Positions 50,091 to 55,876 of a stretch of DNA of 64,000 bases are shown piece by piece; position 1 is the first letter of the stretch, and every line of letters starts with the position of its first letter. A program made the translations under genes and the position numbers. The notes beneath the pieces were generated by a model. It searched no databases. It was not told where the DNA came from and was given only the letters and a program-made list of their open reading frames with translations. The stretch is from Candidatus Undinarchaeales archaeon (GTDB lineage Archaea > SpSt-1190 > JASMDC01): the NCBI GenBank assembly GCA_030753015.1, contig JASMDC010000011.1, positions 1-64,000 on the forward strand. Direction: 5' to 3'.

Positions 50091-50403
50091 TATTGGCACC
50101 CTCCAGGAAATGATTCACACGCTCGACGAAGGTCAGCCACTCGTCGGTAAGCTCGTCCTTCATCGTCTTCCCTTCCGATGTCAGCTTGTAGTACTTCCGG
50201 GGGGGCCCCTCCTGGGACTCCTGTAGGTAGGTGGTGACGTAACCGTCATTCTTCAATCGGCGGAGAAGGGGGTAGATCGTGCCCTCGGAGATTGAGATGT
50301 TCTTGGAGATCTCGGCCACGAGTTCGTAGCCGTAGCAGTCCTTACGTCTCAGCTGGGCGAGCACACAGAGCTCCAGTACGCCTTTCTTGAATTGGATGTT
50401 CAT
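50083..50403 (-). CDS. PadR family transcriptional regulator
   Basis: [34 protein letters not shown]. Confidence 0.95.
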
Positions 50404-50438
50404 GAAGTCATCACCTCACTAGGGTTTGTTGAATGCAC

Positions 50439-50500
50439 AGTACCTTGTAGTACAAGGTACTATATATACCTTTGCATTGGAACGCAAGGTACTATATATA
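50439..50500. promoter_or_regulatory. Candidate PadR operator: AGTACCTTGTA-G-TACAAGGTACT plus a second degenerate site
   Basis: Perfect 11-1-11 inverted repeat at 50439-50461; CAAGGTACTATATATA repeated at 50453 and 50485; upstream of padR. Confidence 0.75.
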
Positions 50501-50559
50501 CGGAGGTAATATGGCCCCTCGTGCAAAGGCATTTAAGGAGTGTTCCCCAACTCCGCCCG

Positions 50560-51276
50560 ATGCGCCGCTTCCACGACATCGGCCTCCGGTACCCCGGAAC
50601 ACCCGAGGACGCCAGGGAGCTCGTCACCGAGGCGAAGCGCATGGGCTTCCATCGCGTGTGCATCAACGTCCCGGTCCGGGGCAAGGAAGGGATCAAGCTC
50701 CTCAAGTCGCTCAGGGACCAGGACCTCGGAGAAGGGACGCTCATCGGCGCCGATATCGACGTGATCGGCGGCTCCAAGAACGGTCTCCATAACCTTCTCG
50801 GCCGGGCGAGGAAGCTCGCTGACATTGTCGCGGTACTGGGCGGTGACCTGGCGATCAACAAGTACGCTGTCGAGTCGCGCGAGACCGATGTGCTCCGCGC
50901 CCCCTATCGCGGCAGACGTGATTCGGGCGTGGACAAGGTCGTAGCGGAGGCCGCTGCCAGGAACGGTGTAGCGCTGGAGCTCTCGTTCGCTGATGTGCTC
51001 GCTCCCAACAGCGGTCGGATCGGTCTCCTCCGACGGCTCGGAGAGCTCGTTGAATTTGCAGGAGCGTTCGATACCTGCTTGGTGCTTTCCAGCGGTGCCA
51101 TCGATATGCTCGGGCTTCGGGTGCCACAGGACCTTGCCGCGTTCGTCACCTGTCTCGGGATGGACAATGAGGACGCCCTTGAGGCCGTAAGCACGGTACC
51201 GGGCGAGGTCGTGGACAGGGCATTAGAGCGAAAGGACGAGCGCATCATCGCGCCAGGAGTGCGGGTGATCGGATGA
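50560..51276 (+). CDS. rnp3: Ribonuclease P protein component 3 (Rpp30)
   Basis: VLGGDLAINKYAVE..DVL, AAARNGVALE, SSGA..LR; position upstream of pop5-psmA. Confidence 0.88.
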   Translation: MRRFHDIGLRYPGTPEDARELVTEAKRMGFHRVCINVPVRGKEGIKLLKSLRDQDLGEGTLIGADIDVIGGSKNGLHNLLGRARKLADIVAVLGGDLAINKYAVESRETDVLRAPYRGRRDSGVDKVVAEAAARNGVALELSFADVLAPNSGRIGLLRRLGELVEFAGAFDTCLVLSSGAIDMLGLRVPQDLAAFVTCLGMDNEDALEAVSTVPGEVVDRALERKDERIIAPGVRVIG

Positions 51277-52396: not shown

Positions 52397-53101
52397 GTGG
52401 TCGACATCGACCGGGCAGTGATCGCCCGGCTCCAGAAGTTCGGATCGACCTTCGAGATCCTCGTGGACCCCGACGTGGCTCGGGAGTACAAGGAGGGCAA
52501 GAAGGTCGATATCGACAAGCTCATGGCGGCCCAGGACGTGTTCAAGGACGCTCACAGTGGAGACCGGTGCGGCGAAGAATCGCTGTTGAAGGTGTTCGAG
52601 ACCACCAATCCATTCGAGGTCGCCAAGCAGATACTCGACAAGGGCCAGATCCAGCTCACAACCGAGCAGAAGCGCCATATGGCGGAGGAGAAGTACAAGC
52701 AGGTCGCAGCCCTCATCGCCCGCAATGCGATCAATCCGCAGACAGGCACTCCGCACCCCGTTGTCCGTATCGAGCGTGCCATGGAAGAGGCAAAGGTGCA
52801 CTGCGATATCTTCAAGGACGCCGAGCAGCAGATGGCCGACGTCGTCAAGCTGCTCAGGCCGCTCCTGCCGCTCAAGTTCGAGACGCGAATAATCGCGCTG
52901 AAGGTTCCTCCGAGCTTTGCGAGCAACGCTCAGCGGGAGGTCCGCACGTTCGGTGAGATGAAGCAGGACCAGTGGCTCAAGGACGGATCATGGGTCGCCG
53001 TGGTGGAGATACCTGCGGGGATGCAGGACGAGTTCTTCGGTAAGCTCGCCGGCCTCACCCATGGCGAGGCCGAGACGCGCGTGCTGGAACATTTCCCCTG
53101 A
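52397..53101 (+). CDS. Ribosome maturation protein SBDS/Sdo1
   Basis: FEILVDP, KGQIQLTTEQKR, NPQT.TPHP..RIE.AM. Confidence 0.95.
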   Translation: MVDIDRAVIARLQKFGSTFEILVDPDVAREYKEGKKVDIDKLMAAQDVFKDAHSGDRCGEESLLKVFETTNPFEVAKQILDKGQIQLTTEQKRHMAEEKYKQVAALIARNAINPQTGTPHPVVRIERAMEEAKVHCDIFKDAEQQMADVVKLLRPLLPLKFETRIIALKVPPSFASNAQREVRTFGEMKQDQWLKDGSWVAVVEIPAGMQDEFFGKLAGLTHGEAETRVLEHFP

Positions 53102-53107
53102 GCACTG

Positions 53108-53788
53108 GTGACATCGATGGCCCGCATCCTTGTGAAACCTCGGCAGCTCGTCGTTCCCGGTACACCGCTAGCATCGGGTGTGGTGGGGGGCGCCGCCCCC
53201 GGCACCCGGCTCGATGGTGATACGCTCTATGCCACCGTCGTGGGCCTGGCGTCGGTGCGTAGTGGCGATGTGGGCATCATCCCCCTGGGAGGCCCCTACC
53301 TGCCGTCCAAGGGCGATATTGTCATCGGCATCGTCACGGCCGTACGCGGAACGTGGATAGAGATCGACATCAAGGCACCCTGGTCCGCGGACCTGGGGCT
53401 GGAGGGGGGTGACGACCGGAGACCGGAGCGTGGCTGGCGGAAAGGTGACGCAGTGCTCGCGACCGTGACCGGGATGGACGAGGAGAAGCACGCTATGCTC
53501 GACATCAGCGGAATGGACCATGGTCCGATCTCCGAGGGGCTCCTCATCGATGTACCGGCCCCCAAGGTGGCCCGGCTAATCGGGCGTAGTGGGAGCATGG
53601 TGGGCATGATCCGTGAGCTTACCGGCTGCACCATAATCGTCGGCCTCAACGGACGTGTCATGATACAAGGGACGCCCGGGGGCCAGCTCCTGGCCGCACG
53701 GGCCGTCGGGCTCGTCGAGGCCAATGCTCACACTCACGGATTGACCGATGCCGTTCGTGTGTTCCTGGAAGGTGAGCGCCGTGATTAA
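53108..53788 (+). CDS. rrp4: Exosome RNA-binding subunit Rrp4 (divergent)
   Basis: LVVPG, YLPSKGDIVIG, KH KVARLIGRSGSM, G.NG.V, AHTHGLTD. Confidence 0.9.
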   Translation: MTSMARILVKPRQLVVPGTPLASGVVGGAAPGTRLDGDTLYATVVGLASVRSGDVGIIPLGGPYLPSKGDIVIGIVTAVRGTWIEIDIKAPWSADLGLEGGDDRRPERGWRKGDAVLATVTGMDEEKHAMLDISGMDHGPISEGLLIDVPAPKVARLIGRSGSMVGMIRELTGCTIIVGLNGRVMIQGTPGGQLLAARAVGLVEANAHTHGLTDAVRVFLEGERRD

Positions 53789-54494
53789 TAGGCGACCCGA
53801 GAGCCTGTTCGTCGATGGAAGACGGCTTGATGGCCGAGCTCTCGACGCGTTGGGCACCGCTGTGGCCGAGACCGGGATAATCCCCCAGGCCGACGGGTCC
53901 GCAAAGGTGGAACGGAGCGGCACAAAGGTGCTCGCCACGGTCCGCGGTCCACATGAGCCCCAAAAGCATGAAGATGATCTCACGCACGTTCGCTGCACTA
54001 TAGATGTCCCCTCGTTCAGTGGTCCTGTACAGCATGACGACCTCACCGAACGGATGGAGGGGGCCTTGTGCTCTCTGGTGCTCTTCGACGACCTCCCCGG
54101 GTGTGTAGTCGATGTGCGTATCCAACTCGTGGCCTCGGGCGCAAGCGTTCTCGCCACGGCCCTCGCCGCCGCTACTCTCGCACTGGCCGACGCCGGTGTG
54201 CCCATGCGCGATCTGGTGGCCGCTGTGGACGTGGTCATCGTCCATGATGCACAGGGGAAACGGTTCATCGCCCTGGATCCGTCAGAGATCGAGGGTACAT
54301 GGGCCTCGTCCACGATCACTGTATGCTTCACCTGCCATAGGGGGGACCTCGTCCTTCTCTGTGCTAACGGCAGGCAATCACAGGACGAGCTTGAGAGCGC
54401 CCTCACGCTCGCAGCGCGTGGCATGGGCGCCGTCAGCGACCTCATGACCGACTCGTTCCTCCGCCGGTATGCGACAAGAGGTGAGGACAAATGA
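53781..54494 (+). CDS. rrp41: Exosome subunit Rrp41, catalytic motifs degenerate
   Basis: DGRRLDGR, ADGSA, TKVLATVRGP, LALADAGVPMRDLV; conserved position between rrp4 and rrp42. Confidence 0.88.
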   Translation: MINRRPESLFVDGRRLDGRALDALGTAVAETGIIPQADGSAKVERSGTKVLATVRGPHEPQKHEDDLTHVRCTIDVPSFSGPVQHDDLTERMEGALCSLVLFDDLPGCVVDVRIQLVASGASVLATALAAATLALADAGVPMRDLVAAVDVVIVHDAQGKRFIALDPSEIEGTWASSTITVCFTCHRGDLVLLCANGRQSQDELESALTLAARGMGAVSDLMTDSFLRRYATRGEDK

Positions 54495-55264
54495 TACCTG
54501 CCCGACTGGTGGATTGCACCGTGGTCCGTCGAACGGTACGACGTTCTCTAGCGAACGGTCAGCGGTTCGATGGCAGGGGTCTGGGCGATGTCCGGCCCGT
54601 GAAGGTCATGTGCGACGTGGCTCCCGTGGCCGAGGGCTCCGCTCAGGCGTTCATTGGGATGACGCATGTCATCGCCGGTGTCCGGCTCGAGGCTGCTCCG
54701 CCCGTGGCGGACCATCCTGTGGAGGGAGTGCTCCATGTCCATGCCGGCAAGGATGGTGCTCGTCTTGCCTGGGCCGTTGAGCGTACCCTTCGTGATACCG
54801 AGGCCGTTGACCTCATGCGTCTGTGCATCGAGCCAGGACGGACCGTGTGGCACGTGTGGCTCGACGTGCGCTGCATCAACGATGACGGTTCCCTGGTCGA
54901 TGCCTGTGTATTGGCATCGGTCGCAGCTCTCGCCACGGCGCAGATGCCACGCTTCGACGGCGGGAGAGTGGTCCGGGACGAGCGGATAGGTCCACTGATG
55001 GTGGACGGCCTACCTGTCACCTGCACTCTTGGCCTGGTGGACGGAAAGCTCGTGGCCGACCTCACCCGGGAGGAGGGGACGGTGGCCGACGCCAAGGTGC
55101 GCGTAACCTTCCAACCGGACGGCGCTCTCGCACAGGTCATGGCTAGTGGTCGGGGCACGCTCTCGTCAGACAAGATATCGCAGGCCGTCGCACTCGCGAA
55201 GAGGGCAGCACCGACGCTCCGTGAGGGTGTCCTGGCCGCCGTCGCAAGGTTTAAAAAAGCCTAG
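54491..55264 (+). CDS. rrp42: Exosome subunit Rrp42 (divergent)
   Basis: GQRFDGR, AEGSA, LCIEPG..VW...LDV..INDDGSLVDA. Confidence 0.9.
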   Translation: MIPARLVDCTVVRRTVRRSLANGQRFDGRGLGDVRPVKVMCDVAPVAEGSAQAFIGMTHVIAGVRLEAAPPVADHPVEGVLHVHAGKDGARLAWAVERTLRDTEAVDLMRLCIEPGRTVWHVWLDVRCINDDGSLVDACVLASVAALATAQMPRFDGGRVVRDERIGPLMVDGLPVTCTLGLVDGKLVADLTREEGTVADAKVRVTFQPDGALAQVMASGRGTLSSDKISQAVALAKRAAPTLREGVLAAVARFKKA

Positions 55265-55279
55265 GTGGTGGGCTTGGCG

Positions 55280-55876
55280 ATGAGCAGGCAAAGGAAACTC
55301 GTGCCGTTGGAGAAGTACCTTGTCAGTGGCGTACATATCGGCACCCGCCAGAAGATGAAGGATATGAGCGAGTTCATTTACAAGCTCCGTCCTGACGGTC
55401 TGGCCGTGATGAACATCCAGAAGATCGACGAGCGCCTGCGGGTAGTCTCCCGATTCCTATCCCGGTACGAACCTGGCGAGGTTCTGGTCGTGGCAGCCCG
55501 TGAGACCGCCAAGAAACCGATCCGCAAGTTCGCCGAGGCCACGGGGTGCAAGCCCTGCATTGGACGGTTCATGCCCGGGACCCTTACAAATCCTGCTTAC
55601 GAGAAGTACACTGAGCCGAGGGTCGTGTTCGTCAATGATCCGATCGCCGACAAGCAGTGTATCACCGAGGCCATGGAGGTGGGTATCCCCATCGTGTCCC
55701 TCTGTGATACCAACCACATTAAAGAGAACATCGACCTGATCATCCCCGCCAACAACAAGGGGAAGAAGTCGCTCGGGCTGGTCTACTGGATCATCGCTAA
55801 GGAGATGCTCATCGAGCGCGGGGTCCTTCCTCCGGATGTCGAGTACGAAGTACCAGTGGAAGAGTTCGGAGGCTAA
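55280..55876 (+). CDS. rps2: 30S ribosomal protein S2 (uS2)
   Basis: YLVSGVHIGTRQK, GRFMPGTLTNP, DLIIPANNKG. Confidence 0.97.
   Translation: MSRQRKLVPLEKYLVSGVHIGTRQKMKDMSEFIYKLRPDGLAVMNIQKIDERLRVVSRFLSRYEPGEVLVVAARETAKKPIRKFAEATGCKPCIGRFMPGTLTNPAYEKYTEPRVVFVNDPIADKQCITEAMEVGIPIVSLCDTNHIKENIDLIIPANNKGKKSLGLVYWIIAKEMLIERGVLPPDVEYEVPVEEFGG

Follow-up and report, generated by a model that had tools for sequence, protein, structure and literature searches.

Archaeal exosomes are described as active, processive enzymes in the available portions of two sources (preprint 10.64898/2026.03.16.711897; PMC7144898). The canonical complex, known from several solved structures (2BR2/2JE6, 2BA0, P. abyssi 2PNZ, M. 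thermautotrophicus 2WNR and T. acidophilum 8XIE), comprises the subunits Rrp4, Rrp41 and Rrp42. The accessible text of the same preprint states that the eukaryotic PH-type ring has lost phosphorolysis yet has been retained, and places this loss within eukaryotes. In Halobacteria and Methanomicrobiales, according to the available part of PMC7144898, the exosome genes are gone and 3′-5′ decay has passed to a bacterial-type hydrolytic enzyme, aRNase R. The present analysis concerns the rrp4, rrp41 and rrp42 genes of a Candidatus Undinarchaeales archaeon, which lie in a stretch of 64,000 nucleotides (contig JASMDC010000011.1, positions 1 to 64,000, forward strand; hereafter the window) and encode an exosome whose Rrp41 appears to be catalytically dead. 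The genes are:

53108-53788, + strand: rrp4, exosome cap subunit with N-terminal, S1 and KH domains; GXXG motif (GRSG) retained.
53748-54494, + strand: rrp41, ring subunit with the RNase PH fold, catalytic centre ablated.
54491-55264, + strand: rrp42, non-catalytic partner in the ring; a loop is deleted between A85 and G86 (near nucleotide 54746).

The window has the same three genes, superoperon and RNase PH fold as the canonical archaeal exosome; its subunits align over their full length with the solved ones, and the Rrp41-Rrp42 interface is predicted. In contrast to the canonical complex, neither the RR loop nor the G(S/T)R motif nor either catalytic Asp residue is present in its Rrp41, the Rrp42 loop is shorter by 15-17 residues, all three proteins score below the equivalog cut-offs, and Csl4 was not found in the genome. 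By fold, gene context and homology, the window complex is a derived archaeal exosome, which fails the Rrp41 catalytic features and the score cut-off. As in the eukaryotic Exo9 core (yeast, human; e.g. 2NN6, 4IFD), a PH-type ring without phosphorolytic residues has been retained together with the Rrp4 cap (in the window, at the level of sequence). Unlike Exo9, the window encodes two ring paralogues (Rrp41 and Rrp42) rather than six, no Rrp44/RNB partner was found in its genome, the inactivation is independent and took place in a prokaryote, and the replacement is a PNPase, for which no docking on the ring is known. Like the archaea with aRNase R, this lineage seems to have passed 3′-5′ decay to a bacterial-type enzyme, but it has kept the dead genes, and the enzyme is phosphorolytic. 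It is probable, in our judgement, that exosome phosphorolysis was made dispensable by PNPase and that the ring was kept as a non-catalytic RNA-binding or docking complex. A preliminary description of this locus had proposed a non-phosphorolytic archaeal exosome, either a scaffold or an intermediate of loss, and the alignments, which restore no catalytic motif, support it. The intact PNPase, an RNase D-like gene and purifying selection on the dead exosome genes are new beyond that description.

Rrp41 was aligned by HMMER with solved chains of S. solfataricus (2je6_B/2br2_B), A. fulgidus (2ba0_F) and T. acidophilum (8xfx), and two MAFFT alignments were built with 16 and 32 other Rrp41 proteins. 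The dead site is common to three sequences, those of the window, of a sister species (G001) and of protein cluster P0002, which are referred to below as the dead clade. The altered positions are:

54030..54035, + strand: Q95-H96, at the position of the RNA-binding Arg-Arg pair; invariant in the three dead-clade sequences.
54144..54152, + strand: S133-V134-L135, at the position of the phosphate-binding G-(S/T)-R motif; invariant in the three dead-clade sequences.
54294..54314, + strand: G183 to T189, spanning the positions of the catalytic residues D182 and D188 (HMMER and MAFFT).

Both methods align ADAGSR of S. solfataricus with SGASVL of the window (S138 is replaced by V134 and R139 by L135), and both show the loop carrying Q95-H96 to be 7-8 residues shorter than in S. 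solfataricus, where the Arg-Arg pair is presumably R98/R99. The D182 position is occupied by Gly (G183) in the window and by Ala in the sister species, and the D188 position by Thr (T189). Three independent alignments agree that the RR loop, G(S/T)R and both Asp residues have been lost, whereas all three motifs are retained in each of the 27 other archaeal Rrp41 proteins aligned, 14 of which come from the same phylum. These replacements (SGASVL, both Asp residues, and the RNA-binding Arg pair in a shortened loop) had all been read from the DNA beforehand; it had been proposed that proper alignment might restore the catalytic Asp and the GSR/GTR motif, and it restores neither. As stated in the accessible part of PMC3539426, D182 and D188 of the S. 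solfataricus protein are the counterparts of the Asp residues that bind metal in PNPase, and the D182A substitution alone abolishes the activity of the S. solfataricus exosome. The loss of all catalytic motifs in these alignments shows that the window Rrp41 cannot run the known phosphorolytic mechanism. Both of its domains are still recognized above their cut-offs (PF01138 RNase_PH, 63.2 bits; PF03725 RNase_PH_C, 22.5 bits). The dead-clade Rrp41 proteins also carry an invariant C193-x-x-C196-H197 directly after the lost catalytic Asp (window 54324-54338), as well as a clade-specific Cys119 (54102-54104) where other Rrp41 have Pro-Arg; these Cys/His residues could be due to chance or could form a metal site or a disulfide.

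The deletion in Rrp42 removes the E.GPP loop in front of the ARVVDR helix (15 residues by HMMER, 17 by MAFFT), in agreement with the loss of this loop noted previously. The helix motif, said to read AWAVER, does so in the window (W94 in place of Arg, nucleotides 54770-54772), but the sister species retains the Arg (ARAVER), and the Arg-to-Trp replacement is therefore not a lineage trait. Further Rrp42 variants (P0241-P0243) are of full length. The idea that Rrp42 has taken over catalysis was considered and rejected, because the equivalent positions in the alignments read as those of an ordinary Rrp42. Rrp4 aligns over its full length with A. fulgidus Rrp4 (2ba0_A; 112 bits), with its KH GXXG motif in place, and its match to NCBIfam NF003181 spans positions 2-219 of the 221 in the profile.

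Apart from Rrp41 and Rrp42, the only protein with RNase PH domains in the genome to which the window belongs (G000; 3.85 Mb, 117 contigs, 98.9% complete) is a PNPase of 750 amino acids (aa). The PNPase gene and a further candidate for 3′-5′ decay are located as follows:

G000:C106:70911-73163: PNPase, bacterial-type, with two PH cores, KH and S1 domains.
G000:C40:169086-170303 (locus L157:1420-2637), + strand: RNase D-like gene, DEDD 3′-5′ exonuclease with two HRDC domains.

The PNPase scores 818.4 bits against TIGR03591 (cut-off 525.05), covering profile positions 2-688 of 689, and aligns end to end with the solved chain 5yjj_A; the RR(E), GSSS and D..D.K motifs of the second core are present. 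It has the same domains and catalytic motifs as bacterial PNPases (e.g. 5YJJ, 3GME), but is encoded in an archaeal genome. Bacterial contamination was considered as its source and rejected: the gene is located in the middle of the 111-kb contig C106, among genes for type III RuBisCO, PAN, a bifunctional HxlAB and NAC, which indicates that it belongs to the archaeon, and the sister species also carries a PNPase. The loss of Rrp41 catalysis would thus be tolerated because the genome has a complete bacterial-type PNPase. A gene for a TnpB-family RNA-guided endonuclease is located about 8 kb from the PNPase gene (G000:C106:62249-63427; L011:4250-5428; - strand).

Searches of the same 98.9% complete genome for a second rrp41 (PF01138) and for csl4 (NF034126), both suggested in the preliminary description, found neither, and an RNB nuclease (RNase R or Rrp44-type; PF00773) and RNase E/G/FAU-1 (PF10150) were likewise not found in it. 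The genome encodes four beta-CASP proteins and has a single weak match of RNase J type. According to the available part of PMC7414124 (Dombrowski et al. 2020), Undinarchaeota and DPANN cluster 2 have an exosome with Rrp4, Rrp41 and Rrp42 but without Csl4, as in the window. As the phylum is known from that paper to lack Csl4, its absence here does not represent decay specific to the window lineage. The RNase D-like protein matches PF01612 (147.9 bits) and HRDC (100.3 bits); its TIGR01388 score of 193 bits falls short of the cut-off (299). In bacteria, the relative of Rrp6, a cofactor of the eukaryotic exosome, is RNase D. RNase D-like genes turned up in 4 of 151 archaea sampled, both species of the genus among them; the 15 remaining phylum genomes yielded none, nor did the 37 genomes of a Thermoplasmata-labelled class described below. 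The gene is remote from the exosome operon, being placed on contig C40 while the operon lies on C20.

The distribution of PNPase coincides with that of the dead Rrp41. Among 401 sampled archaea, PNPase was detected in two, and among 17 genomes of the phylum also in two, exactly those with the dead Rrp41; it was not found in any of the 15 other phylum genomes searched. Most of the sequences nearest to this PNPase (55-62% identity) bear the label Thermoplasmata or Thermoplasmatota; the PNPase P0122 is 67% identical. A quick tree places the PNPase of the window genome in a clade of 22 rows (Shimodaira-Hasegawa-like approximate likelihood-ratio test support of 100), sister to PNPases labelled Patescibacteria; the other 18 rows comprise 13 labelled Thermoplasmata, Thermoplasmatota or Proteinoplasmatales, four unlabelled and one labelled Eubacterium cellulosolvens.

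The class to which one of the PNPase-related genomes (G041) belongs, labelled Thermoplasmata, was then surveyed through its 37 species genomes. PNPase is present in 32 of them. Rrp41 scores over the cut-off in 10 genomes, is degenerate in three and was not found in 24 (21 of which have PNPase), where "not found" does not equal absent, as genome completeness is not given for this class. The degenerate proteins of G049 (253 bits), G048 (199 bits) and G050 (172 bits) have all lost both Asp residues, and two of them the Arg of GTR as well; all three genomes encode PNPase. Their replacement residues differ from those of the window, so that the inactivations look independent. The presence of PNPase alongside an intact-looking Rrp41 in eight genomes of the class and in a further genome, G042, suggests that PNPase is permissive but not sufficient; it appears to permit rather than force the loss of exosome catalysis. 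Bona fide bacterial-type RNase PH was also observed in the PNPase-bearing class (G076:C177, L147:1498-2226; G074:C3, L148:1498-2208), with scores of 312-313 bits against a cut-off of 141.5, and frames of about 250 aa resembling RNase PH are candidates for the same in about eight further genomes.

The ratio of non-synonymous to synonymous substitution rates (dN/dS) was calculated by the Nei-Gojobori method (NG86) for one species pair, the window and G001, a check among relatives that had been called for in the preliminary description. The ratios for Rrp4, Rrp41 and Rrp42 are 0.176, 0.164 and 0.183, respectively. Pooled, the exosome genes give 0.176 (bootstrap 0.140-0.233) and five neighbouring genes (psmA, SBDS, uS2, a MEMO-like and a TraB-like gene) 0.068 (0.051-0.088); Rpp30 and Pop5 were left out of the neighbour pool, the latter (0.34) because it is short and overlaps psmA. 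Constraint on the exosome genes is therefore about 2.6-fold relaxed compared with the neighbours, yet far from neutral. Since the window and the sister species share the dead site, purifying selection acted on an already inactive protein. With dN/dS at about 0.18, the dead genes are under purifying selection, which favours a retained non-catalytic complex over free decay.

The exosome genes had been described as far more diverged than psmA, SBDS and rps2, and both profile scores and identities agree with this. Rrp41 scores 118 bits against TIGR02065 (cut-off 318.7), Rrp42 179.7 bits against NCBIfam NF003282 (cut-off 280) and Rrp4 173.8 bits against NF003181 (cut-off 200), whereas the neighbours exceed their NCBIfam cut-offs (SBDS, 284.9 against 126.55; psmA, 343.1 against 219; uS2, 273 against 211.5). 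Amino acid identity to the sister species is 82.5-86% for the exosome genes, compared with 93-96% for psmA, SBDS, uS2 and the MEMO-like and TraB-like genes. The Rrp41 model was matched at E ≤ 1e-25 in 377 of the 401 sampled archaeal genomes; the weakest best E-values are those of the window genome and of G001 (about 1e-33), followed by 3e-59 and 1e-60. The outlier status of the Rrp41 of these two genomes is not due to chance. A word-based search of 5.8 billion proteins yielded three 90% clusters close to the window Rrp41 (its own and those at 89% and 83%), beyond which identity does not exceed 36%. When 1.84 billion representatives were searched in full with HMMER, one cluster reached E ≤ 1e-30, and the next match had 101.8 bits and 34% identity. 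A scan of metagenome contigs with the three-sequence alignment of the dead clade produced 338 pattern matches, none of which was a relative.

Docking of Rrp41 with Rrp42 was predicted with a score of 0.72, the best of three controls reaching 0.23. Of 157 solved complexes, 116 attain the mark applied, as do 2 of 215 mismatched pairs. At least 81% of contacts are common to the runs, and the partner pLDDT (predicted local distance difference test) is at least 85. The prediction supports docking of the two proteins, and as homologous complexes have been solved, the pass may reflect likeness to those. Contigs from three metatranscriptome runs (two studies) match the operon at no less than 99% identity in the 3′ end of Rrp4, the Rrp41/Rrp42 junction and Rrp42; their coverage of the operon is incomplete, and they provide a weak hint that it is transcribed. 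Besides 10 runs that are possibly the source of the window DNA, four metagenome runs (marine, seawater or unspecified; four studies) hold at least half of the sampled words of 53108-55264, and in one of these 12 of 12 contigs are at least 99% identical to the stretch; this indicates that the organism or close strains recur in seawater samples.

The three exosome genes form part of the archaeal proteasome/exosome superoperon, which on the + strand comprises genes for Rpp30, Pop5, psmA, SBDS, Rrp4, Rrp41, Rrp42, uS2 and a MEMO-like protein. The context genes with assigned positions are:

50392-51276, + strand: Rpp30, the first listed gene of the superoperon.
52397-53101, + strand: SBDS, upstream context gene (TIGR00291, 284.9 bits).
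55265-55876, + strand: uS2 (rps2), downstream context gene adjoining rrp42 (TIGR01012, 273 bits).

The position of rrp41 between rrp4 and rrp42 is that expected for an archaeal Rrp41, and the gene order in the sister species is the same as in the window. The Rrp41-Rrp42-uS2 order is common to other genomes of the phylum (match positions of uS2 and Rrp41 in G002-G016), which supports the phylum assignment; the G001 contig has the taxon label Candidatus Undinarchaeota. The list of open reading frames (ORFs) shows no internal stops in the Rrp4, Rrp41 and Rrp42 frames. The Rrp4 stop TAA (53786-53788) lies within the Rrp41 frame, giving an overlap of 8 to 41 nucleotides depending on the choice of start codon; ATGA at 54491-54494 is common to the end of Rrp41 and the start of Rrp42; and the Rrp42 stop TAG (55262-55264) abuts the uS2 frame. 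The ORFs and junction positions thus bear out the earlier statement that the three genes lack stops and keep overlapping junctions. In the protein collections, gene callers start Rrp42 at Met40 (218 aa; P0244 and P0245), which leaves out the region encoded by 54491-54607. The longer frame is considered the right one, since residues 1-39 contain G.R.DGR..R, a conserved motif of the RNase PH fold, and account for the overlap of rrp41 and rrp42 at ATGA.

The genus (G000 and G001) has genomes of 3.6-3.85 Mb with about 61% GC, which encode type III RuBisCO, PAN and HxlAB. Among the 17 species genomes of the phylum, the other 15 are of 0.6-1.2 Mb, and uS2 is 43-55% identical to that of those relatives. 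The genus thus differs from the rest of the phylum in genome size, in its PNPase, and in the catalytic motifs that the 14 aligned Rrp41 of other phylum genomes keep.

The sequence of events that would account for these observations begins with the acquisition of a bacterial-type PNPase, a member of a PNPase clade otherwise labelled Thermoplasmata/Thermoplasmatota. This enzyme would supply phosphorolytic 3′-5′ decay and, in reverse, tailing, and it would then become tolerable for Rrp41 to lose phosphate binding, the holding of the RNA 3′ end and the coordination of the catalytic metal. Rrp4, Rrp41 and Rrp42 would still fold and most likely assemble into a capped ring, which is presumably retained as an RNA-binding or protein-docking platform through its intact S1/KH cap, while 5′-3′ decay would fall to the beta-CASP nucleases. 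Several points weigh against this account. The genome is metagenome-assembled, with an estimated contamination of 5%, and PNPase may have been gained either before or after Rrp41 was inactivated. PNPase coexists with an intact-looking Rrp41 in the genomes mentioned above, although in G042 it lies on a short contig of 4 kb. The dN/dS values come from a single pair, so that 0.18 could blend an earlier period of constraint with a recent one of relaxation; assembly of the ring is a prediction; and the metatranscriptome contigs could stem from DNA carry-over. In addition, the neck-loop position of R67 holds a basic residue (Lys or His) in the window, but Glu or Asn in the sister species. As reported in the accessible part of PMC4824110, R67G lowers the RNA affinity of the S. 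solfataricus exosome 1000-fold. Given this effect and the variation of charge at the R67 position within the genus, threading of RNA through the ring pore may also be weakened.

The main rival to the retained, non-catalytic ring is that the window provides a snapshot of exosome loss, in which the function disappeared after the arrival of PNPase and the genes are on their way out, being still present because the loss is recent or because they lie upstream of the essential uS2. The deletions in Rrp42 and in the Rrp41 neck loop would fit such a course, as would the rate of the exosome genes at non-synonymous sites, which is 2-3 times that of the neighbours, and complete loss does seem to happen in PNPase-bearing archaea, to judge from the 21 PNPase-bearing genomes among the 24 of 37 in which Rrp41 was not found. 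Against this stand the pooled dN/dS, which even at its upper bound of 0.233 (dS about 0.4-0.6) is far from neutral, the identity of the dead-site residues in three species-level lineages, the lack of stops or frameshifts in both the window and G001, and the full length of the Rrp42 variants P0241-P0243. A frame kept open merely for translational coupling would not hold amino acid change so low, and ongoing loss is regarded as rather unlikely. It is very improbable that Rrp41 or the ring is still an enzyme, with a nuclease or other activity that employs other residues. Purifying selection is compatible with an activity, and the invariant C193-x-x-C196-H197 and the new C119 of the dead clade could be put forward as such residues, but all four elements of the known mechanism have gone together, and Rrp42 has not gained them. 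We know of no RNase PH-fold enzyme that works without these four elements.

A eukaryote-like division of labour, with the inert ring acting as a docking or RNA-presenting hub for the RNase D-like protein or for PNPase, would make sense of an intact Rrp4 cap and of a DEDD-HRDC gene of the Rrp6 family that is so rare in archaea (4 of 151). It is nevertheless judged decidedly improbable, as the window genome yielded no RNB (Rrp44-type) nuclease, the positive charge of the neck is not conserved in the genus, the RNase D-like gene and the operon lie on different contigs (C40 and C20), and a physical tie of either protein to the ring is purely hypothetical. The variable neck charge and the failure to find an RNB nuclease argue against a simple copy of Exo9-Rrp44, and weaken the case for a strictly eukaryote-like ring that would thread RNA to Rrp44. 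A broader and speculative extension, which we consider unlikely, is that the change from a catalytic exosome to an inert ring under selection, as in eukaryotes, has happened a second time, independently, in archaea. The dead Rrp4/41/42 would then be an RNA-recruiting hub that passes substrates to the horizontally acquired PNPase and/or the RNase D-like protein, and PNPase-bearing archaea would show every stage, with an active, a dead or no ring.

Archaeal exosomes have been treated as uniformly active phosphorolytic complexes, with PNPase as their bacterial counterpart and inactivation of the core as an event within eukaryotes, at least in the available portions of PMC7144898, PMC4824110 and the preprint 10.64898/2026.03.16.711897. 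The full-text literature, in a coverage that leaves out most subscription journals, yielded no account of an archaeal Rrp41 that is naturally inactive or of an archaeal PNPase replacing the exosome. An inactivated archaeal exosome under selection would be an independent replicate of the conversion of an enzyme into an inert ring, in a much simpler 3:3:3 complex amenable to expression and assay, and the window exosome lets one ask directly what the ring is good for without catalysis. Together with the PNPase-bearing, Thermoplasmata-labelled class, it would form a comparative series on the displacement of one RNA-decay machine by another after horizontal transfer. A relative of a DPANN-type phylum with so large a genome would deserve notice on its own account. 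The case also carries a warning for annotation, since genes labelled "exosome complex exonuclease Rrp41" may not always encode exonucleases.

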